Origin: Terriglobia bacterium
GTDB taxonomy: Bacteria; Acidobacteriota; Terriglobia; Terriglobales; Acidobacteriaceae
Assembly: GCA_020072585.1 (NCBI GenBank)
Contig: JAIQGL010000006.1
Coordinates: forward strand, 101,808 to 165,807
Length of the DNA stretch: 64,000 nucleotides
Direction: 5' to 3'
Shown: in pieces, positions 29,733-47,873 of the stretch
How positions within the stretch are numbered: position 1 is the first letter of the stretch
How the letters are laid out: the number at the start of each line of letters is the position of its first letter
The notes under the pieces: generated by a model
The model's database searches: none
What the model was told of the DNA's origin: nothing
The model's input: the letters and a program-made list of their open reading frames with translations, nothing else
Program-made: the position numbers and the translations under genes

Positions 29733-29858
29733 TTCTCCGAAGTCCCGAGCGCAGTGAGGGATCGCTATTCCCTTCATTGCTGTCGAGACCTCAACTTACT
29801 CCTTCACAAAAATTCTTCGTGAGTGCAGGGCTCCCTCGCTTCGCTCGGGATTCCAGGA
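29733..29858. repeat. Family-1 inverted-repeat element (both arms) between gcvPA and gcvH
   Basis: Left arm TTCTCCGAAGTCCCGAGCGCAGTGAGGGATCGCTATTCCC. Right arm CAGGGCTCCCTCGCTTCGCTCGGGATTCCAGGA. Confidence 0.8.
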
Positions 29859-29859
29859 A

Positions 29860-30243
29860 TTACTTCTCTTCCGTGACGTACTTCTCGTAATCGTCGGCTG
29901 ACATCAGCGCGTCCGCCTGCTTCGCGTCCGCCAGTTCCAACTTGATCATCCAGGCGCTGTGCGCATCTTGATTCACTGCTTCCGGCGACTGATTGAGGCT
30001 CTCATTGATCCCAATGACTTTCCCTGAAGCCGGCGCATAAAGTTCTGAGACGGCCTTAACTGATTCCACGGTGCCAAAGCTCTTGCCGGCTTCCACCTGC
30101 GCGCCTATTTTGGGTAATTCAACAAAAACAATATCGCCCAGTGATTCCTGCGCGTGGTCCGTAATGCCAACCGTGGCCGTGTTGCCCTTTACCTGGATCC
30201 ACTCGTGTTCTTTTGTGTATCTGTAGTCTTTCGGATATGCCAT
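29860..30243 (-). CDS. gcvH: Glycine cleavage system H protein
   Basis: Lipoyl-lysine motif VESVKAVSELYAP. 127 aa. Confidence 0.95.
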   Translation of the reverse strand: MAYPKDYRYTKEHEWIQVKGNTATVGITDHAQESLGDIVFVELPKIGAQVEAGKSFGTVESVKAVSELYAPASGKVIGINESLNQSPEAVNQDAHSAWMIKLELADAKQADALMSADDYEKYVTEEK

Positions 30244-30310
30244 CGCTTTGTCCTGTCCCTTGAGAGCTGAGTTTCTGGGGCTATATTTTTGGAGCTATCT
30301 ATTTTCGGGG

Positions 30311-31453
30311 CTATAACTTTTTAGGTCGCTTGTAAAACGGGGTCGGCACAACCTTGCACTTGACCTTCTGGCCGCGGATCTCGACAAAAACTTCGTGTCC
30401 GATCTCTGAATGTGACGGAGGTACGTACGCCAAAGCAATGTTCTTTTTCAAAAACGGCGCCGGTGATCCGCTGGTGACATAACCAATTTCGCTTCCTGCC
30501 GCATCAAATACCTTATAACCGTCGCGCGGGATGCCCCGGTCCACCGCTTCCAGACCAACCAGGATGCGCTTCAGCCCTTCTGCTTTGGCTTTTTCAAGCG
30601 CCACGCGTCCCACAAAATCCGCCTTCTCCATCTTGCAGTAGCGGTCCAGCGCTGCTTCCCAGACATTGATGGTGTCTGAGATTTCATGGCCGTAAAGCGC
30701 CATCTTGCCTTCCAGCCGCAGCGTGTTGCGCGCGCCGAGTCCGCAAGGAACAATCCCAAACTCCTTGCCCGCCTCGGTCACTTCATTCCAGACGCGCTCG
30801 CTGGTAGGAACGTCTGACGGTACGTAAATCTCAAATCCGTCTTCCGCCGTGTAGCCTGTCCGCGCAATTAGCGTGTTGGGCAGGTTGCAGACGGTCCCGT
30901 GCTTGAACCAGTAATTCTTGATCTGTGAGAGATCCACATTGGTCAGCTTTTGCAGCGTGGCTTCAGCCTTGGGCCCCTGGATCGCAATCTGCGTGTAGTA
31001 ATCGCCCACGTCATCCGCGTGGCAGCGGAATCGCCCCACGTTCTTGCGTACCCAGCTATGGTCCTTCTCGCGCGTGCCGGCGTTGATCACCAGCAGGTAA
31101 TCATTCGGGCCCATCTTGTGGACGATCACATCGTCCACGAACGTTCCCTCCGGATAGAGCAGCGCGGAATAATGCGCCTGGCCTTCCTGTAGCTTTGAGG
31201 CGTCATTCATGCTGATCCACTGCACGGCATCCAGCGCCTGCGGCCCGCGGATCAGAATGTCGCCCATATGCGAGACATCAAACATGCCCACGCCGGTGCG
31301 CACCGCCAGGTGCTCTTTTACCAATCCGCCGCTTGCGGGATATTCGACAGGCATGTCCCAGCCGCCAAAATCCACCATCTTGGCGCCGAGCCGGCGATGC
31401 AGCGCGTTCAGCGCCGTCTTTCTAAGTGTTTGGCCTTCTGCGGTTGAGGACAA
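30311..31453 (-). CDS. gcvT: Glycine cleavage system aminomethyltransferase T
   Basis: 380 aa. FGGWDMPVEY, MFDVSHMG and TGYTAEDGFEI motifs. Confidence 0.95.
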   Translation of the reverse strand: MSSTAEGQTLRKTALNALHRRLGAKMVDFGGWDMPVEYPASGGLVKEHLAVRTGVGMFDVSHMGDILIRGPQALDAVQWISMNDASKLQEGQAHYSALLYPEGTFVDDVIVHKMGPNDYLLVINAGTREKDHSWVRKNVGRFRCHADDVGDYYTQIAIQGPKAEATLQKLTNVDLSQIKNYWFKHGTVCNLPNTLIARTGYTAEDGFEIYVPSDVPTSERVWNEVTEAGKEFGIVPCGLGARNTLRLEGKMALYGHEISDTINVWEAALDRYCKMEKADFVGRVALEKAKAEGLKRILVGLEAVDRGIPRDGYKVFDAAGSEIGYVTSGSPAPFLKKNIALAYVPPSHSEIGHEVFVEIRGQKVKCKVVPTPFYKRPKKL

Positions 31454-31566
31454 GTGTTTTCCCTTTCAAATCCCTGGGATACAACGAGACAGACCCGCCG
31501 CCGGGCTGTGACGAACCCCTAAGGTTAACATCCACGTTTTGCAGGGGTCAATAAAGCCACTCACGT

Positions 31567-31962
31567 GTGTCAAAGCTCGTTAGAAATGTCCCCATCACTA
31601 ACTCATTAGAAATGTCCCTTTTTGAGTTGTTGTCGGTCAGTTTTAGCAAAAACCGCCTTGAGTCTGTCATGTTGAACACCGCTCAAGTTGAGCCACGGGC
31701 TTTACCGCGCCCCGCTTGGCCATCGACCATTGACCCGTTGCCGGAAACCTTGAATCGCGCTAATCTTCCCGCTATGGCCAAGGAATACATGTGCATGATC
31801 TGTGACCAGCCGGAAAGAAGCTGCTCTTGTAACAAATACTGCGCGCTATGCCAGAGTCTGTTTGAAGTCCGCCTGTGTGAAGACGGCATCTATTATTGCC
31901 GCCCCTGCCGCGAGGCCTGCGACCTGCAAGCCCAGGTAGGAGGCAAGAGTACAGAGTGGTAA
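31567..31962 (+). CDS. Hypothetical Cys-rich small protein; true start uncertain (internal Met candidates)
   Basis: The C-terminal 55 aa contain CMICDQ...CSCNKYCALC...YYCRPCREAC, consistent with a zinc-ribbon-like module. GTG start in the ORF track. Confidence 0.35.
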   Translation: MSKLVRNVPITNSLEMSLFELLSVSFSKNRLESVMLNTAQVEPRALPRPAWPSTIDPLPETLNRANLPAMAKEYMCMICDQPERSCSCNKYCALCQSLFEVRLCEDGIYYCRPCREACDLQAQVGGKSTEW

Positions 31963-31999
31963 CCGTCATGCTTGATCCAGCGATCACGCACCCGATTCT

Positions 32000-32101
32000 C
32001 AATTTGGTAATTGCGTAATTTGGTAATTTAGTCATTGAGCATCTCCCGGGCGGACGCATGGCGGTTCAATTGCCCAATTACCAAATTACTCAATTACCAA
32101 A
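32000..32101. repeat. 26-bp near-perfect inverted repeat (AATTTGGTAATTG-type) with 47-nt loop
   Basis: TTTGGTAATTGCGTAATTTGGTAATT is compared with the reverse complement of AATTACCAAATTACTCAATTACCAAA. They match at 25 of 26 positions by eye. Confidence 0.85.
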
Positions 32102-32879
32102 CAACCTCGCGTCTCCGCGCCTCCCTGCCGAAATCACCGGCTACTACAAAGCCCTGGTGTCCCGTTGGGGCCCGCAAAACTGGTGGCCTGCGCGGTCGCG
32201 TTTTGAGGTGATCGTCGGCGCCTACCTCACCCAAAACACTAACTGGAGCAACGTGGAAAAAGCCTTGCTCAACCTGCGCCGCGTCCGCCTGCTCAGTGTG
32301 AGCGCCATGCGCAACGTGCCGCTCGCCGAACTGGAAATCCTGGTGCGCCCTTCCGGCTACTTTCGCCAGAAGGCACGGAATCTCAAGACCTTCATCGCAT
32401 TTCTTGACCAGCAGTACTCTGGCTCGCTCAACCGCATGTTCGCGCAACCCACGGAAAAACTCCGCGCTGAGTTGCTGGCGCTGAACGGCGTCGGCCCGGA
32501 AACGGCGGACTCCATCCTGCTCTATGCCGGCAACCACCCAGTCTTCGTCGTGGACGCCTACACCCGCCGCGTGCTGCTCCGCCACGGCATCATCAGTGAG
32601 AAAACCAGTTATGAAGAAATCCGCTCGCTTATCGAACATGCCGTCAGCAGTGCTGAAGCCGGTTCTCTCAACATGCGGAAGACCGGCTCAGACCCGCGGC
32701 ACGCCTCGTCGCCCATGAGCAGCGCATCGCGCGGCGAACTAGCCCAGCATTACAACGAACTTCATGCGCTGATCGTGCGGTTGGGAAATCACTATTGCCG
32801 CAAAACGGCAAAGTGCGAAGGTTGCCCTTTGCAACCGTTTTTAAAATCACCACAAGCCACAACAGCCCAGGGTGCATAG
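32058..32879 (+). CDS. Endonuclease III-related HhH-GPD superfamily protein
   Basis: WWPARSRFEVIVGAYLTQNTNWSNVEKA and the helix-hairpin-helix LNGVGPETADSILLYA. C-terminal Cys cluster (YCRKTAKCEGCPL). The N-terminal codons lie inside an inverted repeat. Confidence 0.75.
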   Translation: MAVQLPNYQITQLPNNLASPRLPAEITGYYKALVSRWGPQNWWPARSRFEVIVGAYLTQNTNWSNVEKALLNLRRVRLLSVSAMRNVPLAELEILVRPSGYFRQKARNLKTFIAFLDQQYSGSLNRMFAQPTEKLRAELLALNGVGPETADSILLYAGNHPVFVVDAYTRRVLLRHGIISEKTSYEEIRSLIEHAVSSAEAGSLNMRKTGSDPRHASSPMSSASRGELAQHYNELHALIVRLGNHYCRKTAKCEGCPLQPFLKSPQATTAQGA

Positions 32880-33024
32880 GAATCCTTTCCACGTCGCCGG
32901 CAGCCTGATTCACCTTCTTCTGGTATTTGTCGTGATCTCGATCATCTGGCACCTGGCCACCGGAAGACGTGCAACTGTTTGAGCAGTCTCGACTGTCGCA
33001 GCTCGAAACTTTGTATTACGATGG

Positions 33025-33573
33025 ATGGCCTATTGGCCATTCATATCTTTTATGTCACCTCTTGACGGCTATTTTTGTGCCACCTGCAAGCAATTTCATT
33101 CTGGTCTTCCTACCAGTTATGCGGCGGACTTCCCGGATAGCTATGCCTCGATTGACGAAAAAGAGCGTGAACAACGTGCGTTGATTGGTTCCGACCAATG
33201 CATCGTCGATAACGAGATGTACTTCATTCGTGGGCTAGTCGAGGTGCCTATCATTGGATTTCAAGAATTCTTTCTTTGGGGCCTGTGGGCTTCAATATGG
33301 AAGGAAGCTTACGGCGAAATAAATGAACATTGGCAAACCAACGGCAGGGAAAATCTTATTGGCCCCTACAAGGGGCGCCTCAATAATGAACTCCGCGAGT
33401 ATTCCCAGTCCACACTCAACCTTAAGTGCACCATCCGCATCCAGCCTCTAGGAGCGCGGCCACTTTTCTTCATCGACGAACCCGGACACCCATTGGCTAT
33501 TGAACAGCGCGATGGAATTTCGCTCGAACGCGTTCAGCAGATTGCTTCCGCGCTGATGCACAAAAACACCTAG
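33025..33573 (+). CDS. DUF2199-like protein
   Basis: N-terminal CATCKQFH...P..Y and the later FFLWGLWASI segment match my recollection of DUF2199. No search was done. Confidence 0.5.
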   Translation: MAYWPFISFMSPLDGYFCATCKQFHSGLPTSYAADFPDSYASIDEKEREQRALIGSDQCIVDNEMYFIRGLVEVPIIGFQEFFLWGLWASIWKEAYGEINEHWQTNGRENLIGPYKGRLNNELREYSQSTLNLKCTIRIQPLGARPLFFIDEPGHPLAIEQRDGISLERVQQIASALMHKNT

Positions 33574-33580
33574 CGCTCGT

Positions 33581-34426
33581 TTACCCCGGCCACATCTCCA
33601 GCGCCGTCTTGCTGAGAATCTGCTCTTTCACCTGTTCCGGCAACTCCAGCGCCTTGAACTGCTCCAGGTTCTGCTCGATCGTCGGGATGCCGGGGCTGGG
33701 GAAGTCCGTGCCAAACAGCGTCTTGTGCGCGATCTCTTTCACGCGCGGGAAATACTTAAGTAGGATTTTGGGCGGGATGCCGCTGATGTCCAGGTGCACA
33801 TTCTTGTGCCGGCGCAGCAGAAAAAATGCGGTGTGCATCCAGATCGGCCGGCCACCGTGTGCCATCAGGATCTTCAGCTTGGGAAAATCCACCGCCACGT
33901 CGTCCAGATAAATCGGATCGCCGAACTTGTTGCGCGCCGCGGGGAAGATCGACGTTCCCGTATGGATCATCACCGGAATCCCGTTCGCTTCCGCCGCGCG
34001 ATAAATCGTTTCCAGCTCCTTCACACCGTTCAGGTAGTCATTGGCGTAAAGCAACTGATGTGGCGGATGGATCTTGATCAGCCGTATGCCCAGGCGCACC
34101 AGGTTGTCCATTTCCGCCTGTACGTTGAGCGAATGCCGCGGATGCACGCTGCCGCAGGAAAGCAGGCGCTTTGGGTTTTCCTTGCAGTAATCCGCCACCC
34201 ACTGGTTCACCTCATGCGTAAACCCCATGGTCTCCGGCGCGACATAATTAATCAGGACCGCGCGCTCCACGCCGATGGAATCCAGATACTTGAGCAGCGC
34301 CTTAGGCGACCGGCAGTACTCCAGGATGTCTTCATAATGGCCGCGCGCCTTCTTCATCACCTCAAGCGGTCCGGCCTTGAACATGTCGACGGGTTGTATA
34401 TGGATGTGGCAGTCAGTAATTTGCAT
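33581..34426 (-). CDS. Amidohydrolase_2 (ACMSD/LigI-type metal-dependent hydrolase/decarboxylase) family protein
   Basis: N-terminal DCHIHI metal motif. Internal HPPH, IHTG and MAHGG segments are typical of the PF04909-type TIM barrel. Confidence 0.75.
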   Translation of the reverse strand: MQITDCHIHIQPVDMFKAGPLEVMKKARGHYEDILEYCRSPKALLKYLDSIGVERAVLINYVAPETMGFTHEVNQWVADYCKENPKRLLSCGSVHPRHSLNVQAEMDNLVRLGIRLIKIHPPHQLLYANDYLNGVKELETIYRAAEANGIPVMIHTGTSIFPAARNKFGDPIYLDDVAVDFPKLKILMAHGGRPIWMHTAFFLLRRHKNVHLDISGIPPKILLKYFPRVKEIAHKTLFGTDFPSPGIPTIEQNLEQFKALELPEQVKEQILSKTALEMWPG

Positions 34427-34434
34427 TTGTTTTT

Positions 34435-34582
34435 TATCCCGAACGAAGTGAGGGAACCCTATTGCTACTTGGCTTTCAAAAGCGTCACGAGGATTTATTT
34501 ATGCTCGGACAAAATGTCTTAGTTTGCGGCTAACACATTCTTCATTGCGGTAGGGCTCCCCTCGCTACGCTCGGGATAAAAC
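34435..34582. repeat. Family-1 inverted-repeat element (both arms)
   Basis: Left arm TATCCCGAACGAAGTGAGGGAACCCTATTGC. Right arm GTAGGGCTCCCCTCGCTACGCTCGGGATAAAAC. Confidence 0.85.
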
Positions 34583-35554
34583 ACACGCCAGCACCGCTCG
34601 CTTCGCGTACACCTTCACAATCTCCCGCCGATACTCCGGTGTAAGCCCTGAGGTCGTCAGCGGTTTCGCCATCTTGGCTGCCAGCTCGCCCACCACCGCC
34701 GCAACATGCTCGTCAATCTGCTTGCCCACCAGCGCATTGTCCGCGCCTTTAACCAGCAGCGGCGCGGGATTCACGGCCGTAATCGCCACGCGGGCGTTTT
34801 CCACCGGGCCGCCGTTTTTCTTGAGCGCCACCGCCACGCCGGCCAGCGGGTAATCAATCGATCCTCGTATGCGCAGCTTCATGTAGCTTCCCTTCCAGCC
34901 GGCGGATTCTTCCGGCAGAAAGACCCGGGTGAGCATTTCATTCGGCTCCAGCTTCATGCGTACATCGCCCACGTTGGTATAAAAATCCTTCATCGCCACG
35001 CGCCGTAACCCGCTCGGCCCCACAATCTCAACCTCTGCGCCCAGGCAAAGCAACGCCGGCGGCGTGTCACCGGAGAAAGCCGCCCAGCAGAACTTGCCTC
35101 CCGGCGCCACATGGCAGAGATCGCCGTCTTTCTTGATGCAGAAACCGCACGACCGTCGCCACTGCAATGACTGGTTGTACCAGACACAGCGCGTATCCAG
35201 GCATATGTTGCCGCCCAGCGTCCCCATGTTGCGCAGGATGGGCGAGGCCACCGTCATGGCCGCTTCATGCAACACGCGATAGTTGCGCCGTATGAACTCC
35301 GAATCTTCAATCGCTGAAAGCGGCGTGAGCGCGCCAATCTCCATGCCCGCGCCCGGACGTACGTGGATTCCGCGGATTTCTTCAATCCCGCGGATGTCCA
35401 TCAGGTACGCGGGCGTAAACAGCTTCTGCTTCATCGAAGGCAGAAGATCAGTGCCGCCGGCCAGGACCATCAGATCGCTGCCGTGCCGGGCGAGGTAGTC
35501 CGCCGCCTGCCGCAGTGTGCGCGGACGCAAGAACTTGAATGTAGGAAGACTCAT
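34565..35554 (-). CDS. Xanthine-dehydrogenase-family FAD-binding subunit with extra Cys-rich FeS loop (HcrB-like)
   Basis: VLAGGTDLLPSMK FAD motif. Insertion NICLDTRCVWYNQSLQWRRSCGFCIKKDGDLCHVAPGGKFCW has six Cys. Confidence 0.85.
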   Translation of the reverse strand: MSLPTFKFLRPRTLRQAADYLARHGSDLMVLAGGTDLLPSMKQKLFTPAYLMDIRGIEEIRGIHVRPGAGMEIGALTPLSAIEDSEFIRRNYRVLHEAAMTVASPILRNMGTLGGNICLDTRCVWYNQSLQWRRSCGFCIKKDGDLCHVAPGGKFCWAAFSGDTPPALLCLGAEVEIVGPSGLRRVAMKDFYTNVGDVRMKLEPNEMLTRVFLPEESAGWKGSYMKLRIRGSIDYPLAGVAVALKKNGGPVENARVAITAVNPAPLLVKGADNALVGKQIDEHVAAVVGELAAKMAKPLTTSGLTPEYRREIVKVYAKRAVLACVLSRA

Positions 35555-35556
35555 AT

Positions 35557-35722
35557 GTTCCGAAGTCCCGAAGCGTAGCGAGGGATCCCTATTCCTATCG
35601 ATGCCTTATTGGTTCTCAAATTGTCCCCTAGTTTTGCCAGTGCTTCCAAATTCGCGCATTCCAACCCCTAAAGTTTCTCGTGACGATAGGGTTCCCTCGC
35701 TCCGCTCGGGATTTCAGAAAAC
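35557..35722. repeat. Family-1 inverted-repeat element (both arms)
   Basis: Left arm GTTCCGAAGTCCCGAAGCGTAGCGAGGGATCCCTATTCC. Right arm GATAGGGTTCCCTCGCTCCGCTCGGGATTTCAGAAAAC. The arms match at about 28 of 33 positions by eye. Confidence 0.9.
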
Positions 35723-35742
35723 TCCGCGTCTCCGCGGTGAAT

Positions 35743-38331: not shown

Positions 38332-38383
38332 TTTTCCGAAGTCCCGAACGCGCGGTTTTTGCGCGTGAGGGATCCCTATTCCC
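38332..38383. repeat. Family-1 solo left arm with expanded central hairpin
   Basis: TTTTCCGAAGTCCCGAACGCGCGGTTTTTGCGCGTGAGGGATCCCTATTCCC. No matching right arm lies before the next gene. Confidence 0.8.
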
Positions 38384-38424
38384 TTCCAAGCTGCTAGCCA
38401 CTAGATCGCAGCGCTTCTTGAGCC

Positions 38425-38495
38425 CTCTGTGCTCTCCGCCTCTTCTGTGGTTCAACTCTTTCGTCTTTGCGTCCTTCGCGCCCTTGCGGTGAACC
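38425..38495. repeat. Composite ~72-bp repeat unit, copy 1
   Basis: CTCTGTGCTCTCCGCCTCTTCTGTGGTTCAAC...TTTGCGTCCTTCGCGCCCTTGCGGTGAACC aligns with 39132..39204. Confidence 0.8.
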
Positions 38496-38515
38496 GGTTT
38501 TCCGATCACGCGCGA

Positions 38516-39019
38516 TCACCCGATCACCCGATTCTTCTGTTCGGCCTCAATCGCCGCCTTAATCGCCTGATACATCTGCGTATATCCGGTGCAACGGCAC
38601 AGGTTTCCGCTCAATGCGTGGCGAATGTCTTCTTCCGTCGGATCAGGATTGCGGTCCAGCAGCGCTTTCACCGTGATCATAAAGCCCGGCGTGCAGTAGC
38701 CGCACTGCGCGCCACCCCAGTCGCCGTAAGCTTTTTGGATCGCAGCCAGCGCGCCGTGCTCCGCTATACCTTCAACCGTCGTGACTTCCTGTGTGCCCCG
38801 CTCGTCAGCCGCGCAGCTCATGGCCAGCATGGTGCAGCTCAGCGTGGGAACGCCATCCACCAACACGGTACATGCCCCGCATGAGGAATCGTCGCACCCG
38901 CGTTTTGATCCGGTAAGGTCCAGCTCCTGGCGCAGAACGTCCAGCAGCAGTTCGCTTGGCTCAATCGCCAGCTCGTGGCTGCGGCCGTTCACGCGGAGTT
39001 CAATGAGTTCTTTTTTCAT
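38516..39019 (-). CDS. Xanthine-dehydrogenase-family [2Fe-2S] small subunit (HcrC-like)
   Basis: GCDDSSCGACTV plant-type cluster motif plus CGYCTPG and NLCRCTGY second cluster motifs. Confidence 0.9.
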   Translation of the reverse strand: MKKELIELRVNGRSHELAIEPSELLLDVLRQELDLTGSKRGCDDSSCGACTVLVDGVPTLSCTMLAMSCAADERGTQEVTTVEGIAEHGALAAIQKAYGDWGGAQCGYCTPGFMITVKALLDRNPDPTEEDIRHALSGNLCRCTGYTQMYQAIKAAIEAEQKNRVIG

Positions 39020-39131
39020 CAGATACCAAAAAACTGTTCGGCGTCAGCCTGTTCCCAATATTCGAACGGACGTTCGTTAATGCCGATACAAGAATACACG
39101 CTCGCCCCTTGTTCTTGCCACTCAGGGTTTG

Positions 39132-39204
39132 CTCTGCGCTCTCGGACGTCCTCTGCGGTTCAATCTTCATGCCTTTTGCATACTTCGCGTCCTTTGCGGT
39201 GAAC
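39132..39204. repeat. Composite ~72-bp repeat unit, copy 2
   Basis: CTCTGCGCTCTCGGACGTCCTCTGCGGTTCAATC...TTTGCATACTTCGCGTCCTTTGCGGTGAACG. Confidence 0.8.
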
Positions 39205-39207
39205 GTT

Positions 39208-40137
39208 TCAGTACCCAAAGTCCGTCTTCTCCGCATAAGCATGCCGTTTCACGCCCAACTCTTCCACTCTCGCCACGCCTAGCTGCTTCGCGTACTCATT
39301 GCGATCAGCCACGCCGTTCACCCAGCGCTGTACCCAGGCATTGAAATCACCCTGGGTCTTGGTTTCCGCGTGGTACTGCTGGAAGAAGGCATCGTCGCGC
39401 TTGTTATAGCCTTGCACCGGTGAAGGATGCGCGCCCAGCGGGCACTCCACTACCGCTGTCACCAGAAAACCGGGAATCACTGTCCGGTTCGGATCGCTCG
39501 CAATCACATCTTCATCCACAATCTCTTCCGCGCACACGATTACTTTTTTCGCCGCGCGCACTCCCTCCAGCATCACGCCGAAGTTTCCCCAGCAATGCGC
39601 ATTGCCATGCTTGTCCGCCCGTTGTAAATGAACAACGGTCACGTCCGGCACAAGCGCGCGCACGGCCAGCAGCGTCTCTTTTGGCTCAAACGGAGAGATG
39701 ATCTGGTAGAAAAAATGATTTCCCTTGGGTACATCGCTGCCCATGGCGGTCCGCGTCGGCAGGAATGTCACGCCCATGGCGCCCGCCTGCAACGCCAGCG
39801 CCAGCGTAAAGTTGGTCATATCAAAGACGCGCAGCTTCTCGCCCGGAGTGCCTGGATTCTCAACCTCGGTGGCGTGGCGAAAGTTGTACGCCGAGCCCAT
39901 CATCACGTTGCCTACCCACGCCGCTACCACGTCTTTCACGCATCCGGCGCCAATGAGCTGGTCAAACAGAATGTCGGAGATCGGGCCAATCAGCCGCAGC
40001 TCTTTCTTTTTCTGGCGGATAATCTCATGCCCCGCGGCAAACGGAATCATCTGCTCCATCTGCAGGCCAAGCGCAACACTCGAGCCGTCAGAAACGTGCT
40101 CTGCGACCGCCTGCCGCATTGTCAGAACCTTAGACAC
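39208..40137 (-). CDS. Family I CoA-transferase subunit A (glutaconate CoA-transferase GctA-like)
   Basis: 309 aa. N-terminal MSKVLTMRQAVAEHVSDGSSVAL and overall glutaconate-type alpha-subunit pattern. Confidence 0.75.
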   Translation of the reverse strand: MSKVLTMRQAVAEHVSDGSSVALGLQMEQMIPFAAGHEIIRQKKKELRLIGPISDILFDQLIGAGCVKDVVAAWVGNVMMGSAYNFRHATEVENPGTPGEKLRVFDMTNFTLALALQAGAMGVTFLPTRTAMGSDVPKGNHFFYQIISPFEPKETLLAVRALVPDVTVVHLQRADKHGNAHCWGNFGVMLEGVRAAKKVIVCAEEIVDEDVIASDPNRTVIPGFLVTAVVECPLGAHPSPVQGYNKRDDAFFQQYHAETKTQGDFNAWVQRWVNGVADRNEYAKQLGVARVEELGVKRHAYAEKTDFGY

Positions 40138-40361
40138 CTGCCCCCATCCCGTTCAACCCCGAAAAATATAGGACTTACACGAATCAACCCCGGGGTTAAG
40201 TGGTCAATCCCCTGCGTCGTGCCACAAATCCGGGGCGCTGCTTGATTCAGAATCGAATTCACCACAGCAGCCCAAAGAAAGCTATAAACGATTGAATTGA
40301 AACGACTTATAGTAGCAAAAAGTGCTTGCAAAGTCAACCGGAATGATATGCTTCTAACAAA

Positions 40362-41513
40362 ATGAAACGTCTTCGCCTGGCTCTCCTGATTGTCGCCGCG
40401 ATCCTCCTTGTGGTCTTTTTCCTTGTTCCGTCCATTGTTGAAAGCCGGGTGAACAAGGTGCTGAAATCGCCACACTCCCAGCCTTCCGCTGGGGCAGAAG
40501 AGCTGCACAAAAGGCTCATCGTCGCCGACCTCCATGCCGACAGCCTGCTCTGGAGCCGCAACCTGCTCAAGCAATCCAGCCGTGGCCATGTTGACCTGCC
40601 TCGCCTCGCCGATGGCAACGTTTCCATCCAGGCATTTACGGTGGTCACTACCGCACCGCGCAAGCTCAACATTTATCGGAACTCTGACTCGACGGACCTG
40701 ATCCGCTATATCGCGATGTTTGAAGGCTGGCCGCCACCCACATGGAGCAGCCCCAGGCAGCGCGCGCTATATCAGGCGGCGCGGCTCCACAAATTCGCGG
40801 CTGATTCCAAAGGCATGCTGGTCATAATCCAATCGAGCATGCAGTTGGAGAATTTTCTGGCCACCCGCCAGCCCGGCCAGGTTGCCGGGTTCCTGGGCTC
40901 CGAAGGTGCACAGCCTCTTGAAAGCAATCTGGCCAATCTCGACGAACTCTACTCCGCCGGCTTCCGCATGATGGCCCCCACCCACTTCACTGACACCGCA
41001 GTCGCTGGCTCGGCGGCAGGCATGAGCAAGGCTGGTCTTACCGCGCTCGGCCGCGATTGGGTGCATGCGATGGAGGACCATCACATGCTGATTGATCTGG
41101 CGCACGCTTCTCCCGCTACGCTGCGCGACGTCACCGCAATGGCCACGCGTCCGCTGATCGTCTCGCACACGGGCGTGAAGGGCACATGCAACAACCCGCG
41201 CAACCTCTCAGACGATGAGTTGCGCGCGGTCGCCAGCACTGGCGGAGTCGTCGGCATTGGTCTCTGGGACACCGCGACCTGCGGCACAGACGCTCGCGCC
41301 ACGGCCCGCGCCATCCGCTATGCCGTCAACGTCATTGGTGTTAATCACGTAGCGCTCGGCTCCGACTTCGACGGCGGCATCACGGCTCCGTTCGACTCGA
41401 GCGGCTGGGCCCTGCTCACTGACGCATTGCTCAAAGAAGGCTTCTCCGAACAGGACATTCACAAGATCATGGGTGAAAACGTGGTGCGGGTGCTGCTGGA
41501 AGTGTTCCCCTAA
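40362..41513 (+). CDS. Membrane-anchored M19 (renal-type) dipeptidase
   Basis: N-terminal TM helix. DLHADSLLW, HFTDT, DLAHAS, VSHTGV and ALGSDFDG metal-ligand motifs. Confidence 0.85.
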   Translation: MKRLRLALLIVAAILLVVFFLVPSIVESRVNKVLKSPHSQPSAGAEELHKRLIVADLHADSLLWSRNLLKQSSRGHVDLPRLADGNVSIQAFTVVTTAPRKLNIYRNSDSTDLIRYIAMFEGWPPPTWSSPRQRALYQAARLHKFAADSKGMLVIIQSSMQLENFLATRQPGQVAGFLGSEGAQPLESNLANLDELYSAGFRMMAPTHFTDTAVAGSAAGMSKAGLTALGRDWVHAMEDHHMLIDLAHASPATLRDVTAMATRPLIVSHTGVKGTCNNPRNLSDDELRAVASTGGVVGIGLWDTATCGTDARATARAIRYAVNVIGVNHVALGSDFDGGITAPFDSSGWALLTDALLKEGFSEQDIHKIMGENVVRVLLEVFP

Positions 41514-41716
41514 CATCCCGAGCGGAGCGAGGGAACCCTACGGCCAGAAGGATCTCTCCTGCCGCCGTGGCGCGATTTAGGTGGGAAATAGGCTGGAAGG
41601 GCTTTGCGTTGCCTTATTAGAAGACGGTAGTATTTTCTAAATCGTCATAGCCAACAGTCTGGAAAACAGTAGGGCTCCCTCACCGCAAAATCAGCGGTTC
41701 GGGATTTCAGAGAAAC
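41513..41716. repeat. Family-1 inverted-repeat element (both arms; right arm with expanded hairpin)
   Basis: Left arm ACATCCCGAGCGGAGCGAGGGAACCCTACGG. Right arm AGTAGGGCTCCCTCACCGCAAAATCAGCGGTTCGGGATTTCAGAGAAAC. Confidence 0.85.
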
Positions 41717-42508
41717 TCATTTTCCCCTCCACACCGGCTTTCTCTTTTCCATCCACGCCGCGATCCCCTCTTGCGCGTCCTCCGTCTGCATCAACTCTTC
41801 CAGATAAATCTTTTCCGCGCGCGCCAGCCCCTTGTCCAGATGCATTGAGTCCCACGCATAGAACGCTTTCTTGGCCACCGCCAGCGCCGCCGGGCTTAGC
41901 TTCAACAGGTGATCGACTGTCCGCTGAATCGCCTCCTGCAACTCGCCTTCAGGATGCGCTTCATTCGCCAATCCCAATGCCGCAGCCTCTTCCCCGCTGA
42001 ATGTGCGTCCGGTAAAGACCAACTCGGCAGCCCGTTTCTGCCCCACCAGCGCGGCCAGGGCCGTGCACGCCACCGGCGGATAACATCCCAGCGTGATTTC
42101 GGGAAATCCCCACTTGGCTTTTTCGGTGGTGTACGCCATATCGCATATCATGGCCAGCTCCGCCCCGCCGCCCAAACAAACGCCATGGACCTCGGCAATC
42201 GTTATCTTAGGGAACTTCACCAGCGCGCCGATCACGCCGTGAAATTTCTGCAACATGATCTGGATCTTGTCCGGCGTGTGCACCGCCACATCTACCCCGG
42301 CAGAAAAGCCGCGCTCGCCCCCACACAGAATCACGACAGAGATTTCTTTTCGCTGCTCCACTTCGCGCAACGCCGCCAGCAACTCGTCCATCATCTGGAT
42401 GTCGATGACGTTAAGAGGTGGATTGGTCAATGTGATGCGGGCAAGTGGGCCATGCGCTTCGACGGCAATGCGCTTCGGCGATGTGGCGGAGACCGGTGAT
42501 AACGCCAT
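41717..42508 (-). CDS. Enoyl-CoA hydratase/isomerase (crotonase) family protein
   Basis: ITLTNPPLNVID...FSAGVDV...GGGAELAMICD crotonase motifs. The start is set at the internal ATG 42508; the upstream extension has no homology-like character. Confidence 0.85.
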   Translation of the reverse strand: MALSPVSATSPKRIAVEAHGPLARITLTNPPLNVIDIQMMDELLAALREVEQRKEISVVILCGGERGFSAGVDVAVHTPDKIQIMLQKFHGVIGALVKFPKITIAEVHGVCLGGGAELAMICDMAYTTEKAKWGFPEITLGCYPPVACTALAALVGQKRAAELVFTGRTFSGEEAAALGLANEAHPEGELQEAIQRTVDHLLKLSPAALAVAKKAFYAWDSMHLDKGLARAEKIYLEELMQTEDAQEGIAAWMEKRKPVWRGK

Positions 42509-42769
42509 GATTTGTGTTCGCTGCGAACGCCTTAGTTTATGCATGCGCGAACGATAAAGTAAAATCAAGAGAAGAATGTCGTCCCCGAGGGCCGGCGCGC
42601 CTGAATCATCTAACGTAAGGGAGGTAGCGTCTGTTTGACACGCCAGCGTGTTATTGTGCCACACATGCCGCATATGTGCGTATTATCTCTTCCGTAACCT
42701 TGTTGCTCCTGCAGAAACCGCGATAACGTCTCTTCAGTCAGGCCGACTTTTTACCCACGGGAGCAGTAG

Positions 42770-43192
42770 ATGAGAAACAAGATTTTTGCCGCGACGTTGA
42801 GATGTACGGGAGCGCTTTTGCTCCTTTTTTTCCTGGCCGGCTGCGGCAGCAGCAACAACAACGCCTTGAATCCACAGTTTCAGCCGCAGGTCGCCAACGT
42901 GCCGGATACGTTCCAGTTCCAGTCAACTGGTGTAACCGGCGTCACGCAGAACCTGCACTATGGCTGGCAGACCAGCGGCACGGCAGCCAGCATTAACCAG
43001 GCGTCGACGCTTACGGCGGGCACAGCCACCGTCACCATCTCTGATGCGAACGGGAAAGCCGTGTATACCGGCAATCTGAGCTCGAACGGGACCTTCACGT
43101 CGGCGGCGGGAGTAGGACCAGGGCTCTGGTCCATTGATGTCGCCCTCAACGGTTACAGTGGCACGCTCAATTTTCGCGTCCAGAAGATGTAA
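42770..43192 (+). CDS. Small lipoprotein, unknown function
   Basis: Lipobox LLFFLAGCGSS. Ser/Thr/Gly/Asn-rich beta-type sequence. Confidence 0.55.
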   Translation: MRNKIFAATLRCTGALLLLFFLAGCGSSNNNALNPQFQPQVANVPDTFQFQSTGVTGVTQNLHYGWQTSGTAASINQASTLTAGTATVTISDANGKAVYTGNLSSNGTFTSAAGVGPGLWSIDVALNGYSGTLNFRVQKM

Positions 43193-43357
43193 CGGGCCAG
43201 GATGTCGTAGCGGGCTGTCCGAGTAAACGACCCAAAGAAACGCCGAGGCTTCCCCCGCCTCCGCGCTTTTTTATCGCCCCTTAATTTCGCTCCGGGATTC
43301 TCGGAAAAACAGTTCGCCGTGCCTCCACGGTGAACTCATGGTTCAGGCATTGTAGGA

Positions 43358-44110
43358 TCAACTCGTCCAGAACCCCTTGGTATCGTACTCCCGGATCGCC
43401 TTCAGCTCCGCCGCATTTGGTTCCGGTGTCGGCTTTACCTCGTCGGCGACTTTCAGCTTCCACCCGGTATTCGCCAGAACATCGTCGACGATCACGCCCG
43501 GATGCACTGTTGCCAGAAAAGCTTCGCCATCTTCCCCAAAGCGCAGCACGCATTTGGTGGTAATCACCGCCGAGGGTCCTCCGCGCGGCAGCCCCACGCG
43601 CTTCCTCCATCCCGCACCTTCCCCGTTTCCCGGACTGGTAATGTAGCTCACTTTTTCCGGCAGCCGGTGTTTGCCATGCTCCAGCAGCGAGACAAAGCGC
43701 TGCGCCATGGACGCAATATCGCATGCGCCGCCCGAGCCGGGCAGCCGCACCATGCCATTTTTGCCCTGGACCTTGGTGGAATTCAGGTTGCCGTATTTGT
43801 CTACCTCGGCGGCGCCCAGAAAGCCCAGGCTCACCCGCCCCGATTGCAGGAGGCTCATTACCTCCAGCATGCCCAGGCACTGCGTCGCGCCTTTGATGTT
43901 CGGCGGATCGGCCATTGTGTAGATAAGCTCCGGCGAGGGCGTGGATCGGATCACGCCATTTTCAAACAGGCCGATTGCATTCGGCGCGTGCGTCTTCTTT
44001 GCAACAACAAAAGCAATCAGCGGCAGCCGCATGCCGACAAAGACGACTTCGCCGTCTTTGATCTCGCGCGCCGCAGCCACCACCATGAGTTCGTTGAGTG
44101 TGTATTGCAT
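43358..44110 (-). CDS. Family I CoA-transferase subunit B (GctB-like)
   Basis: GLFENG segment carries the catalytic-Glu (S/F)ENG motif. 250 aa. Confidence 0.8.
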   Translation of the reverse strand: MQYTLNELMVVAAAREIKDGEVVFVGMRLPLIAFVVAKKTHAPNAIGLFENGVIRSTPSPELIYTMADPPNIKGATQCLGMLEVMSLLQSGRVSLGFLGAAEVDKYGNLNSTKVQGKNGMVRLPGSGGACDIASMAQRFVSLLEHGKHRLPEKVSYITSPGNGEGAGWRKRVGLPRGGPSAVITTKCVLRFGEDGEAFLATVHPGVIVDDVLANTGWKLKVADEVKPTPEPNAAELKAIREYDTKGFWTS

Positions 44111-44119
44111 TTGTTCTTT

Positions 44120-44306
44120 TTCTGCAATCCCGAATCCCGCGCGAGCTTTTTCCGCAGTCCCGAGCCTGAGCGAAGCGAACGGGAGGGATCCCTATTCCCC
44201 CGAGAATCATTTGGGAAACCAATCATAGCAAGAGTTACAAAAAGATTGAGGGAACCTCAGAGGCACTAAAGCCCATAGGGTTCCCTCGCTACGCTCGGGA
44301 TGTAAC
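44120..44306. repeat. Family-1 inverted-repeat element (composite left arm, right arm)
   Basis: Left ...TTTTTCCGCAGTCCCGAGCCTGAGCGAAGCGAACGGGAGGGATCCCTATTCCC. Right CCATAGGGTTCCCTCGCTACGCTCGGGATGTAAC. Confidence 0.85.
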
Positions 44307-44311
44307 AAAAC

Positions 44312-45493
44312 CTACTGCACCGCGTTCAGCGCGCTCTTCCTCACCTCGCCGATCGTCAACAGCGGATCTTTCGCGCCGGTCTTGGGCGCGATCCATTTCT
44401 TTTCTGACCCGATAATGTCCATCAGCAGCTTCTTGTCCGCGGCTGTCGGCAGCCAGCTTTCAATCTGCTGCTTGTATTCCTTTTCTTCCATCGGCTGGCC
44501 TGTCTGCGGATGGAACATCTGGCCTTTCCAGCGGCCAATCATGCGGTTGAACTGGATGTTGGGACAGTAGAGCTCTGTGCTGCCCGGGCGCTGCCCGGCG
44601 CTGATTCGCTTTACCAAACCCACGCACTCGTCGCGATAAAGATGGCGGTTGTAATCGTTTAAGTTATCCAGGTCCGGCGCTGTTTCATTCTTCAACTCGT
44701 CGTAGCGGCCCTTGAGTCCCCAGGTGTAAGCCCAGTGCGCAGACGACGAGTGGTCGGTGCCAAACAGATCATAGGCGCTCGAGATCCACTTGTTCAGATA
44801 CTTCTGCATCAGCCAGCCGGGGACCACGCCGGCTTCGGCGATGCGCGCCAGTCCGGTGTTGCCCGTGCCCATGTGGAAGGCCTCTTCACGCAGCATGTAG
44901 CTCATCGACCGGCCCAGCGGCGCAAAGGCCGAGTACTTCAGCATCTGTAGCTGGAACTTGCCGTCGCGGTCTACAAAGTCAGTGAAGGCAAAAAAGTCCA
45001 GCCAGTTGTCGCACTCTTCATTGAACGATCCCAGCAGCCGCTTGTTCTCATAGGCCTTGCGCTCCAGCATCTTCTGCGCTTCCACTTTTCCGGTGGTGCC
45101 GAAATGGTCAATCAGCAGGGCGCACATCTGCCAGCCGTGGCGCATCTCCTCGATCATCACCCGCGTGAGCGACGAGCGATCGTAGTCACTGGGCGCGGTC
45201 TCAAACAGGTAGCGCTGCTGCTCCACGCTGGCGAACTCAGTATCGCCCTGGTAGACGATCAGATTCATCAAAGCATCGCGCATGTTCTGCGTGGGGATCT
45301 GGCGGACATTCTCCCACTTATTGCGCCCCTTGTAATAGCCGAAGGAGATTTCATCCGTCTCAATCGCGCCGTACAGCGTATCGAACTTAAAATTGCGTAT
45401 ATCGTCGTGATTGACGCCGATTTCCTCGCGCCAGCCCTTGAACAGCCCTTCCCAATCACTAAACGACCCGATCTTCATTATTTTCCCCGGCAT
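44312..45493 (-). CDS. BoxB-type diiron oxygenase (benzoyl-CoA 2,3-epoxidase-like), short form
   Basis: QGDTEFASVEQQRYL, EEMRHGW (ExxH), FVDRDGKFQLQML, LREEAFH (ExxH) and GLKGRYDE match my recollection of Azoarcus BoxB. 393 aa against ~470 for the canonical protein. Confidence 0.75.
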   Translation of the reverse strand: MPGKIMKIGSFSDWEGLFKGWREEIGVNHDDIRNFKFDTLYGAIETDEISFGYYKGRNKWENVRQIPTQNMRDALMNLIVYQGDTEFASVEQQRYLFETAPSDYDRSSLTRVMIEEMRHGWQMCALLIDHFGTTGKVEAQKMLERKAYENKRLLGSFNEECDNWLDFFAFTDFVDRDGKFQLQMLKYSAFAPLGRSMSYMLREEAFHMGTGNTGLARIAEAGVVPGWLMQKYLNKWISSAYDLFGTDHSSSAHWAYTWGLKGRYDELKNETAPDLDNLNDYNRHLYRDECVGLVKRISAGQRPGSTELYCPNIQFNRMIGRWKGQMFHPQTGQPMEEKEYKQQIESWLPTAADKKLLMDIIGSEKKWIAPKTGAKDPLLTIGEVRKSALNAVQ

Positions 45494-45542
45494 TGGTAGC
45501 TCCTCTTAATGTCTTCGATTAACGTCTCGGTACCTGGCGCGC

Positions 45543-46001
45543 TCAGCGATATCCCATCTCTGGGACGAGCTTGGTCTTGCTCTTTACAAACATCCCGCTT
45601 CCGCGCGCGATCTCTTCGTTTTGATCGTTGTACAGAACTGACTCCGCCAGAAACGATGATCCGCCGCCCCGTACAACTTTTCCCAGGGAACGGACCATGC
45701 CTCCTGACACCGGGGCCAGCAGGTACAGGTTGAAAGTGCTGGTCAACACAAAGTTGTCTTCCACAAGAGAGCTGACGGCAAAAAAAGCCGCATCATCCAG
45801 GCTCTTGAAATAGACAGACCCATGCGCGGCCTGCGCCGCATGGAAGAAGCGGCGGTCCACACTGACCTTGATCTCCGCCGTTCCCCGGCCTATCTGGATC
45901 GCCGGCTTAAAGAACTCATTGATCGGCGCAGCCAGGTACATCCGCTCCAGCTTGCGATAGTGCTCTTCGTTCTCTGCAACTGCCAGTCGGCTCGTAGCCA
46001 T
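45543..46001 (-). CDS. PaaI/hotdog-fold acyl-CoA thioesterase
   Basis: ~150 aa hotdog pattern (GTAEIKVSV...HGSVYFKSLDDAAFFA...). The ATG at 46001 overlaps the ALDH stop (TAATG). Confidence 0.65.
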   Translation of the reverse strand: MATSRLAVAENEEHYRKLERMYLAAPINEFFKPAIQIGRGTAEIKVSVDRRFFHAAQAAHGSVYFKSLDDAAFFAVSSLVEDNFVLTSTFNLYLLAPVSGGMVRSLGKVVRGGGSSFLAESVLYNDQNEEIARGSGMFVKSKTKLVPEMGYR

Positions 46002-47467
46002 TACAAGTTCATCCAAACGCTCTTCAGTTCTGTGTAATGTTCAATCGCGTGCATGCCCAGCTCGCGTCCAAAGCCTGACTGTTTGTAGCCGCCAAAGGGC
46101 AACGCTGCGTCCATTACGCCGTACGTATTGATCCACACCGTTCCCGCCTTCAACCGGCGCGAGAGCTGGTGGGCTTTCTTGATGTCATTGGTCCAGACCG
46201 CCGCGGCCAGGCCGTAGACATTTTTGTTGGCAAGTTCCGCCACCTGCTCAATATCGTCAAACGTGAGCGTGGCCAGCACCGGGCCAAAGATTTCTTCCTG
46301 GGCGATCTTCATATCGTTGTTCACGCAGCCAAAAATCGTCGGCTCAATGAAGTAACCATGATCGCCGTTGACCTGCGCGCGCTTGCCGCCGGCCAGCAGC
46401 TTTGCGCCTTCGTTCTTCCCTGCCTCGATATATCCCAGCACCGTCTGCATCTGCTTTTCGCTTACCACGGCGCCCAGCCGGGTCTTGGGATCAAGCGGGT
46501 CGCCCAGCCTGATTTTTTTCGATGACTCCACCAGCTTGGTTACGAACTCGTCTTCCGCTTTTTTCTCGATGAACAGGCGCGAACCGGCACAGCACACCTC
46601 GCCTTTGCCATAAAAGATGCCGTTGAGCGCGCCCTTGACGGCCGAATCCATTTGCGAATCGGCAAAAACAATGTTCGGCGATTTGCCGCCCAGCTCCAGA
46701 GTCACGCGTTTGAGCGTCTCGGCAGAGCTGCGCATGATCTCTTTACCCACTGAGGTTGAGCCCGTGAACGCAATCTTGTCCACGCCCGGATGCTTCACCA
46801 GCGCGGCGCCCGTCTCCGGTCCGCCGGTAACAATGTTCAGCACTCCGGCCGGCAGTCCGGCTTCCAGAGCCAGTTCGCCAAAGCGCAATGCGCTCAAAGG
46901 CGTCTGCTCCGCGGGCTTCAAAATGACAGTGTTGCCGCAGGCCAGCGCAGGCCCCAGCTTCCAGCTCGCCAGCAGAAGAGGAAAGTTCCACGCAACAATC
47001 GCACCCACCACGCCCACAGGCTCGCGCAGAGTATAGGTAAAAGCGTTGCTGAAGCTGTTGACGGTCTCGCCGTGGATCTTCGTGGCCCATCCGGCGAAGT
47101 AACGGAATACGTCCGCCACCATCGGCATGTCCACGTAGCGCGACTCAAAGATCGGCTTGCCGTTGTTCAATGTCTCCAGCTCGGCCAGCTCTTCAATGTT
47201 TTTGTCGATCAGGTCAGCGATGCGCCACAAAACTTTGCCACGCTCACTGGCGGACATCTTGCGCCACGGGCCGTTGACGTCGTCAAACGCCTTGCGCGCC
47301 GCCGCCACTGCCTGATCAACGCCGGTGGCGCCGCCTTCAGCGACTTGCGTGAGCACCTCGCCGGTTGCGGGATTGAAGGTATCGAACGTCTTTCCCGACC
47401 CCTCCGACCATTTCCCGTCGATGAGTAATTTACCGGGTACGACTTTTGCTTTGCTTGCTGCGATCAT
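46001..47467 (-). CDS. NAD(P)-dependent aldehyde dehydrogenase
   Basis: ELGGKSP and catalytic-Cys GEVCCAGSR motifs. 488 aa. Confidence 0.9.
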   Translation of the reverse strand: MIAASKAKVVPGKLLIDGKWSEGSGKTFDTFNPATGEVLTQVAEGGATGVDQAVAAARKAFDDVNGPWRKMSASERGKVLWRIADLIDKNIEELAELETLNNGKPIFESRYVDMPMVADVFRYFAGWATKIHGETVNSFSNAFTYTLREPVGVVGAIVAWNFPLLLASWKLGPALACGNTVILKPAEQTPLSALRFGELALEAGLPAGVLNIVTGGPETGAALVKHPGVDKIAFTGSTSVGKEIMRSSAETLKRVTLELGGKSPNIVFADSQMDSAVKGALNGIFYGKGEVCCAGSRLFIEKKAEDEFVTKLVESSKKIRLGDPLDPKTRLGAVVSEKQMQTVLGYIEAGKNEGAKLLAGGKRAQVNGDHGYFIEPTIFGCVNNDMKIAQEEIFGPVLATLTFDDIEQVAELANKNVYGLAAAVWTNDIKKAHQLSRRLKAGTVWINTYGVMDAALPFGGYKQSGFGRELGMHAIEHYTELKSVWMNL

Positions 47468-47587
47468 GATTTTTCAGCCTTTGGCTCTTAGCTTTTAGTT
47501 CCTGGTTGTCCATGTGGCACAGGCACTCTTGCCTGCAACCACTTGTCCATTGGCAAATCTCTTATGTCAATACAACAATCAACCCTT

Positions 47588-47810
47588 GTCATCCTGAGCA
47601 CTTGCCCCGAAGGAACGTAGCGACTGAAGGCGAGTCGAAGGATCCCGATGCTTCATCCCTGAACATGCCAATTCGGGGAGTTCTTCCCAGAATCTGGGTG
47701 AGAACGCCTTGATGCGACCTGGTTGCCCAATTCACCTTGGGATCCTTCGGCTTCGCGCCAATCGTCATTTATTCAACAACCATTCCCAGACGCGCTCCGC
47801 TCAGAATGAC
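47588..47810. repeat. Family-2 inverted-repeat element (GTCATCCTGAGC...GAAGGATCCC / GGGATCCTTCG...GCTCAGAATGAC)
   Basis: The outer (GTCATCCTGAGC vs GCTCAGAATGAC) and inner (CGAAGGATCCC vs GGGATCCTTCG) segments are mutually complementary. Confidence 0.7.
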
Positions 47811-47831
47811 AGTTCTGAAACAGTTTCCTCG

Positions 47832-47873
47832 CCATAGGGCTCCCTCGCTCCGTCCGGGATTTCAGAAAAAGCC
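47832..47873. repeat. Family-1 solo right arm
   Basis: CCATAGGGCTCCCTCGCTCCGTCCGGGATTTCAGAAAAAGCC, ending 1 nt before the crotonase stop codon. Confidence 0.8.

Follow-up and report, generated by a model that had tools for sequence, protein, structure and literature searches.

The window analysed here is a 64-kb stretch of contig JAIQGL010000006.1 from a Terriglobia metagenome-assembled genome (MAG), whose nearest relatives are Ca. Angelobacter. Its central part carries, mostly on the minus strand, a gcvT-H-PA-PB operon and a 4-hydroxybenzoyl-CoA-reductase-like enzyme cluster, which also encodes CoA transferases, enoyl-CoA hydratases, a PaaA/BoxB-like protein, an aldehyde dehydrogenase and a TetR regulator. 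Short repeats, hereafter named arms, lie in gaps between these genes. We describe the arms, their counterparts in other genomes and their relation to the small GIY-YIG nuclease Ssn. Twelve arms are found at seven loci:

29736-29771, plus strand: arm A1L, adjoining the gcvPA start codon, with the outer flank CCGAAG
29824-29856, minus strand: arm A1R, 1 nucleotide (nt) past the gcvH stop codon, paired with A1L over a 52-nt spacer
34432-34465, plus strand: arm A2L, immediately upstream of the amidohydrolase start codon
34549-34583, minus strand: arm A2R, whose GNA loop contains the FAD-subunit stop codon, TAG (34565-34567)
35558-35595, plus strand: arm A3L, 2-3 nt from the FAD-subunit start codon
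35683-35719, minus strand: arm A3R, closest to the family consensus, about 20 nt past the stop codon of the Mo-subunit gene
38335-38382, plus strand: solo arm A4L, with the expanded apical hairpin CGCGCGG TTTTT GCGCG, abutting the start codon of the Mo-subunit gene
41510-41543, plus strand: arm A5L, beginning at the M19 dipeptidase stop codon, in a convergent gap
41667-41711, minus strand: arm A5R, with the expanded apical hairpin CCGC TGATTTT GCGG, abutting the stop codon of an enoyl-CoA hydratase gene
44120-44198, plus strand: left arm A6L, a composite of a truncated arm start (44120-44134) and, after it, an arm (44151-44198)
44273-44308, minus strand: arm A6R, 5 nt past the stop codon of the PaaA/BoxB-like gene
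47832-47867, minus strand: solo arm A7R, directly past the enoyl-CoA hydratase stop codon (gene at 47874)

The seven loci had been proposed from the sequence alone, and a core search and a profile search confirmed all of them at the proposed positions. When up to 3 mismatches were accepted, the core TCCCGARCGNAGYGAGGGA gave 9 matches against 0.09 expected from shuffles, all within 29.7-47.9 kb. A search with an nhmmer profile derived from 11 arms (--max, E<=10) retrieved the 12 arms and no other match anywhere in the window. As had been claimed, the arms comprise five inverted pairs and two solo arms (38335-38382 and 47832-47867), and the spacers, anticipated at roughly 50-125 nt, measure 52, 83, 87, 123 and 74 nt (range 52-123 nt). 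A single arm has the structure of a small palindrome, TCCC-GA-GC-GNA-GC-GA-GGGA, and its direction is set by non-palindromic flanks, TTTCTGAAA or TTCCGAAG on the outer side and NCCCTAT on the inner side. The inner flanks point toward each other in every pair. Among the window arms the 5' box is CTGAAA, CTGGAA, CCGAAG, TTACA or TTTTA, the family consensus being TTTCTGAAA. GGGA, then any base, then CCC is found in 11 of the 12 arms, the exception being A1L (GGGATCGC).

Eleven arms are wholly intergenic, and the remaining one overlaps a stop codon. Gaps of at least 40 nt were counted on an approximate gene map, which gave 42 gaps in the window and 16 between 29.7 and 47.9 kb. Arms occupy seven of these 16, so that the sequence-only reading overstates the case in letting them fill nearly every intergenic gap of a catabolic island; no arm is present in any of the four divergent gaps within 29.7-47.9 kb. 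Since all seven occupied gaps of the 42 fall inside one run of 16 (p ~0.01 by our own count), the local clustering is real but modest. One locus belongs to the gcvTHP operon instead of the catabolic cluster, and another sits between convergent genes. Elements had also been said to span from stop codon to start codon. This holds for most arm ends, which lie 0-9 nt from a stop or start codon, but not for A3R, 20 nt off, nor for the solo arms, which leave 130-360 nt of their gaps unfilled. Start-proximal arms end 0-9 nt ahead of the ATG, in the window and in relatives alike, and four of the five have the flank CCGAAG, against none of the seven stop-proximal arms (Fisher p ~0.01, our own count). 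The reverse complement of this flank, CUUCGGAG/AA, is Shine-Dalgarno-like; in A1L, the complement CTTCGGAGAA gives GGAG 7 nt ahead of the ATG. The TAG codon of the FAD-subunit gene lies in an arm GNA loop in three genomes, at 34565-34567 of the window and at the orthologous site of the relatives L206 and L209. The stop codon being inside the arm, the repeat provides the last codons of the protein as well as its stop.

Folding was computed for arms and for whole doublets. As single-stranded DNA (ssDNA), the expanded centres of A4L and A5R reach -11.5 and -8.6 kcal/mol (z -2.7 and -3.2). These two hairpins, described at first as private, are real and fold well, but they are not fully private: the CGCGCG expansion of A4L is kept at the orthologous site of the relative L208. 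Whole doublets form long hairpins on both strands, as DNA or as RNA, with z from -2 to -9. Folding the elements in silico had been put forward as a check. As RNA, the doublets of loci 1 to 3 (L1-L3) reach -51 to -67 kcal/mol (z -3.7 to -9.1 versus shuffles), and the GGAG is paired within the L1 fold. Rfam gave no match at the gathering score, and at E<=10 none overlapping the arms. None of the 30 terminator-like sites of the window (hairpin and T run) falls on an arm, in agreement with the earlier view that the arms differ from simple terminators.

The arm core is widespread among bacteria. A scan of one genome per species (596 Gb) found it in at least 120 stretches from Acidobacteriota, Proteobacteria, Verrucomicrobiota, Gemmatimonadota, Bacteroidota and other phyla. 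By our own arithmetic, about 70 matches would be expected by chance; nearly all matches listed share the flanks TGTCA and (T/C)CT, and chance is therefore no explanation. Among the matches listed, the flank type of the window was seen in six loci only (L009, L036, L039, L076, L082 and L114), which, where identified, are Ca. Angelobacter MAGs. Clustering of 670 open reading frames (ORFs) within 600 nt of the motif returned a single recurrent family with inverted arms, a protein of about 100 amino acids with a GIY-YIG domain (PF01541, E 1e-13 to 1e-15). Its gene lies between inverted arms in L033, L038 and L039, the arms of L039 being of the window type. NCBIfam has no model for this small protein, and a full-text literature search for the motif strings yielded unrelated primer matches only.

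A gene of this kind flanked by such repeats has been described by Chenal et al. 2025 (Nat Commun 16:2388; PMC11893778) as the Ssn nuclease with its NTS/SRM repeats (SRM, Ssn-related motif), first in Neisseria. SsnA is a 94-residue GIY-YIG protein (cd10448) that binds the NTS hairpin solely as ssDNA, and one strand alone, and cleaves upstream of this hairpin at a distance of a few nucleotides; the enzyme is inactive on double-stranded DNA or RNA, and the N. meningitidis protein does not bind RNA (PMC11893778). It reduces transformation by NTS-bearing DNA about five-fold (PMC11893778). SRMs are found on both sides of 42% of ssn homologues, cluster around genes and are seldom inside them, and the SRM-ssn-SRM layout resembles insertion sequences and REP/RAYT; NTS is the oriented subset of dRS3 (PMC11893778). 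Cleavage in N. meningitidis depends above all on the three bases directly ahead of the palindrome, and binding on the crucial C just 3' of it. The identity of the loop is not required, and extended loops are tolerated (PMC11893778). The expanded window arms fit this description, since such extensions are tolerated.

The partnership of arm and nuclease was also observed starting from the protein. Eighty metagenome loci were chosen by the protein alone (the best 80 of 585, mostly soil). An inverted flanking repeat scoring at least 14 was present in 42 of the 66 loci with full flanks (64%), against 0 of 173 controls, which are positions shifted along the same loci. At the protein-picked loci the arm form is TGTCA-stem-GAGCGNAGCGA-stem'-TCT, and 12 of the 80 carry canonical NTS-like SRMs, TGTCATTCCCGCGNAGGCGGGAATCCAG, which is the Neisseria NTS and fits the published pattern. 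The basal stem covaries (TCCC/GGGA 24, TTCC/GGAA 15, TCCT/AGGA 5, TTCT/AGAA 4, TTTC/GAAA 2).

The arm type follows the protein clade, the flank type of the window going with one Ssn clade of Ca. Angelobacter-like Terriglobia. Among the 14 nearest relatives of the Angelobacter Ssn (59-67% identity), nine have window-type arms and one has GTCA-type arms; the remaining 66 Ssn loci have one and 53, respectively. Window-type arms lie on both sides of ssn, whose product is a cd10448-type GIY-YIG protein of about 94-110 residues, in L039, L129, L131, L132, L139, L210 and L213. The boxes CTGAAA and CTGTCA differ at two positions, and intermediate forms occur (ctgtaa and ctgcaa; L183 combines a GTCA box with a CCCTAT flank). 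In seven loci (L039 at 6603-6920, L127, L128 and L210-L213) ssn sits between the genes of a 3-hydroxyacyl-CoA dehydrogenase and an enoyl-CoA hydratase, with neighbours 80-92% identical and arms abutting the stop and start codons. This one conserved slot points to vertical inheritance of the Angelobacter-type ssn and not to hopping; L214 has another copy in a different gene context. The arm-ssn-arm unit has the geometry of the window doublets, with the gene in place of the spacer.

The elements turn over among close relatives. The window was compared gap by gap with four syntenic relatives, L206-L209, whose GcvH proteins are 88-94% identical. In the gcvH-gcvPA gap, the window and L206 have the same doublet, spacer included, L209 has a three-arm version, L207 lacks one and L208 contains an unrelated palindrome of TTGGTAATT units. 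In the gap from the Mo- to the FAD-subunit gene, the doublet is present in the window only, and three relatives have a TTGGTAATT element. L207 has neither arms nor TTGGTAATT palindrome in two slots. The gap between the FAD-subunit and amidohydrolase genes keeps remnants in all five genomes, the L206 copy being mostly lost. Because gap contents differ in this way among syntenic relatives, the elements are old residents that are gained, lost and replaced at fixed gaps. The orthologous-locus comparison suggested at the outset gave presence/absence and replacement; the intergenic DNA beside the elements is too diverged among the relatives to delimit empty sites or target duplications, and L122-L125 are one strain and carry no polymorphism information. 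Many GcvH homologues that are nearly identical have entries of 130-193 residues instead of the expected 127 (P0163, P0170, P0174, P0187, P0199, P0216 and others). These over-long records may be start-codon miscalls into variable upstream repeats.

We estimate at about 0.8 the probability that the arms represent a variant, specific to this lineage, of the Ssn-related motifs (SRM/NTS), a class of hairpin DNA repeats evolving together with the roughly 100-residue, single-domain GIY-YIG nuclease Ssn. They would then be the soil-Acidobacteria version of a known system and not a new kind of element. The clustering, the intergenic placement and the layout resembling insertion sequences match the published description. 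Like NTS/SRM, the arms are hairpin repeats of 20-50 nt, oriented by non-palindromic flanks, intergenic and clustered around genes, with inverted copies on either side of a single-domain GIY-YIG gene of about 100 codons. Variable or extended loops are tolerated, and the repeat sequence co-varies with the protein clade. A C two bases past the basal stem is present in most window arms and may correspond to the NTS 3' C, in a register relative to NTS that we infer. A 57/57 count for this 3' C is not evidence, as the search pattern itself required NCCCT. On the other hand, the 5' box is CTGAAA or CCGAAG instead of the GTCA of NTS/SRM, and the centre is GA-GCGNAGC-GA, unlike the CCCGC-GNAG-GCGGG of NTS. 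The Ssn hosts tested so far were symbionts or pathogens; here it is a soil Terriglobia MAG. Finally, the window copies are mostly gene-less inverted doublets, running from stop codon to start codon inside operons.

Several observations weigh against this assignment. Canonical single arms are predicted to fold no better than shuffled sequence (z ~+0.6). The stability of tandem G.A pairs and of GNA loops may be underestimated by nearest-neighbour parameters. The GTCA box is absent from the 12 window arms, and the published SRM pattern, HGTCWYN(0-2)YYVSBRHN(0-5)WNVSBRGN(0-2)RNCYNB, has no match on either strand of the window; for these two reasons we speak of a variant and not of a plain SRM member. 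The same pattern matches NTS yet misses the pan-phylum TGTCATCCCGAGCGNAGCGAGGGATCT form. No ssn gene is present in the 64-kb window, the part of the genome that was covered, and the candidate proteins that were traced led to other samples. Strand-specific ssDNA binding and cleavage were shown for four Ssn proteins, from Neisseria (N. elongata and N. wadsworthii among them) and Wolbachia, and an in vivo role is established for Neisseria only (PMC11893778). The Angelobacter-clade Ssn is outside these four, and its cleavage of the window arms would follow by analogy.

By the same analogy, an arm would fold as TCCC-GA-GC-GNA-GC-GA-GGGA when its DNA becomes single-stranded, during replication, repair or entry of foreign DNA. 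The cognate Ssn would then bind the folded arm on that strand only and nick a few nt 5' of it, that is, at the outer edge of the element and therefore at a gene boundary. An inverted pair would offer one cleavable copy per strand. The likely outcome would be ssDNA cut at cistron boundaries and shorter recombination tracts, as in Neisseria. The arms might spread by a REP/RAYT-like route, which is hypothetical. A bolder proposal, to which we give a low probability, is that the Angelobacter-type Ssn has acquired a new recognition box (CTGAAA for GTCA) and that its repeats are more than passengers, being copied by the nuclease to cistron boundaries, so forming a GIY-YIG-driven mobile system. The host would have co-opted start-proximal arms as ribosome-binding modules, and the arms as cassette borders that limit or channel the recombination of catabolic genes.

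The doublets could instead be cis-acting RNA elements, domesticated for operon expression, that stabilize the upstream mRNA, direct its processing or gate downstream translation through the ribosome-binding site. Every doublet lies inside or at the end of transcription units, the RNA hairpins go far beyond shuffles, the start-proximal arms end 0-9 nt before the ATG, and the Shine-Dalgarno-like complement of CCGAAG is limited to these arms (4/5 versus 0/7), its GGAG being paired in the L1 fold. Given that every copy falls within a transcription unit or between two convergent genes, the elements are also transcribed into strong hairpins. However, one doublet separates convergent genes, the two solo arms are oppositely oriented relative to transcription, both strands fold equally well, and neither an Rfam match nor a terminator signature was found. 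The same arms flank ssn genes and sit in unrelated contexts elsewhere, unrelated TTGGTAATT palindromes take the same slots in relatives while L207 has neither in two slots, and N. meningitidis SsnA does not bind RNA (PMC11893778). An RNA role as the primary explanation is thus unlikely in our judgement, and we regard any effect of the arms on mRNA as secondary.

Two transposon-based explanations also have to be considered. Classical repetitive extragenic palindromic (REP) elements or REPINs, moved by a RAYT, an IS200/IS605-type transposase of the Y1 HUH class, would account for short palindromes in inverted doublets that are extragenic only, absent from divergent promoter gaps and patchy among relatives. 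The likeness to REP/BIME/REPIN and RAYT extends to a conserved, syntenic single gene between its own hairpin repeats, alongside many gene-less extragenic doublets. But the arms have no GTAG-type 5' tetranucleotide, the reverse test links them to GIY-YIG genes, and among the 670 ORFs only the GIY-YIG gene recurs with inverted arms (no dedicated search for Y1 transposases was made). The partner is therefore a GIY-YIG nuclease and not a Y1 HUH transposase and, unlike RAYT, Ssn has no known transposition chemistry. We consider a RAYT-driven origin very improbable; the initial label of a REP-like inverted-repeat family stands in spirit, for hairpin doublets in non-promoter gaps, but not for the partner. 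Miniature inverted-repeat transposable elements (MITEs), that is, deletion derivatives of a transposon that move whole through terminal inverted repeats, are suggested by arms enclosing an internal segment of 50-125 nt and by an arm-ssn-arm unit that resembles an autonomous parent. Yet the five spacers are related neither to one another nor to about 1.5 Mb of related DNA, bar the orthologous L206 copy (64 kb of this genome were covered), no spacer holds a GIY-YIG remnant (hidden Markov model (HMM) E > 0.4), no target-site duplication was visible at the junctions, which were inspected by eye, and solo arms occur. With no target-site duplication and with unrelated, non-recurrent spacers, the MITE label given at first is unsupported, and we give it hardly any weight. 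Two further ideas on the spacers were rejected. They are not decayed ssn genes, as the GIY HMM run against six-frame translations gave a best E of 0.46, nor are they repeats themselves within about 1.5 Mb of related DNA and the window.

If the arms belong to the Ssn/SRM system, this system, studied so far in Neisseria and Wolbachia, extends to abundant uncultured soil Acidobacteriota. At least two large classes of repeats escape the published pattern, namely the pan-phylum TGTCA-TCCCGAGCGNAGCGAGGGA-TCT form and the CTGAAA-box form, so that the counts in published censuses are probably too low for these systems. A clade in which the cleavage-critical box is altered is a candidate for a new ssDNA-nuclease specificity. 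The syntenic comparison offers a natural record of repeat gain and loss in operon gaps of fixed position and is relevant to the way in which SRMs spread. In annotation, the arms account for odd C-terminal extensions, for example where a stop codon falls within an arm, and for intercistronic gaps of unusual length in these genomes. Among solved structures, those nearest to the Angelobacter Ssn belong to the UPF0213/YhbQ proteins (PDB 1ZG2, BH0048, E 7.6e-8; PDB 1YWL, EF2693, 3.6e-5). These proteins have the same size and a single domain, with distant sequence similarity; unlike Ssn, the two entries come from structural genomics and have no described repeat partner.

Further repeats, beyond the twelve arms, were found in the window:

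47587-47651, plus strand: arm of a second repeat family with a canonical TGTCA box (TGTCATCCTGAGC…GTCGAAGGATCCCGA) and a long apical insert
47735-47811, minus strand: inverted partner of the second-family arm (TGTCATTCTGAGCGGAGCG…GCCGAAGGATCCCAAGG)
22435-22512, plus strand: arm, probably degenerate (TTTTCATTCCGAGCG…GGGGAATCCCTATAG), that adjoins the start codon of mutL and has a long apical insert

The second-family arms, which belong to another SRM family, form an inward-facing pair with long apical inserts (47587-47811) that folds jointly as ssDNA at -42.5 kcal/mol, and this arm type also flanks ssn genes in L151 and L159. With solo arm A7R, this doublet makes the 406-nt gap at 47468-47873 a mosaic of two arm families. 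In neisserial intergenic mosaic elements (NIMEs), variable segments of 50-150 nt are enclosed by short inverted hairpin repeats. The mosaic gap is like the Neisseria dRS3/NIME arrangement, but the sequence is another one and the window spacers are non-recurrent among the copies seen. The degenerate arm has an ATTCC/GGAAT basal stem; L206 and L207 have arms in the orthologous gap. The sequence-only reading had reported no clear copy in the other 46 kb of the window. The profile agrees, but it fails to pick up this arm, which that reading had missed as well. Similarly, its inventory of repeats was right for the seven loci and overlooked the GTCA-type doublet at 47587-47811.

Within some arms, an SRM-like second unit is nested in the loop, for example GTCATCCCGAGC[CTTGTCCTGAGCGCAGCGAAGGAAGA]GCGAGGGATCT. 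Such arms occur in L010 (~3958-4010), at 44151-44198 of the window, where a GAGCGAAGCGA unit lies in the centre of the A6L arm, and in L208 and L130. These nested units hint that the arm loop is a preferred site of insertion or duplication.

Other intergenic signals were noticed as well. An A+T-rich palindrome of TTTGGTAATT-like units at 32003-32101 has 36-nt arms that are 86% complementary. Its family is present in the Mo-to-FAD gap of L206, L208 and L209 and in the gcvH-to-gcvPA gap of L208, and its sole Rfam match, to a plant microRNA model, is weak and spurious. Short tandem motifs are positioned directly 3' of stop codons, CACCGCGGAGACGCGGAG and CACCGCAAGGGCGCGAAGGACGCAAAG in the window (35723-35742, ~38470-38515 and 26647-26680) and CACGGAGGCACGGAGACACGGAG and GATCGGGTGATCG in the matching gaps of L206-L209. 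They look like a further lineage-wide class of intergenic repeats. Finally, a bidirectional terminator-like hairpin at 43245-43261 (GAGGCTTCCCCCGCCTC, with T runs on both strands and no arm) lies between a lipoprotein-like small gene (42770-43192, plus strand) and a CoA-transferase gene (43358-44110, minus strand).

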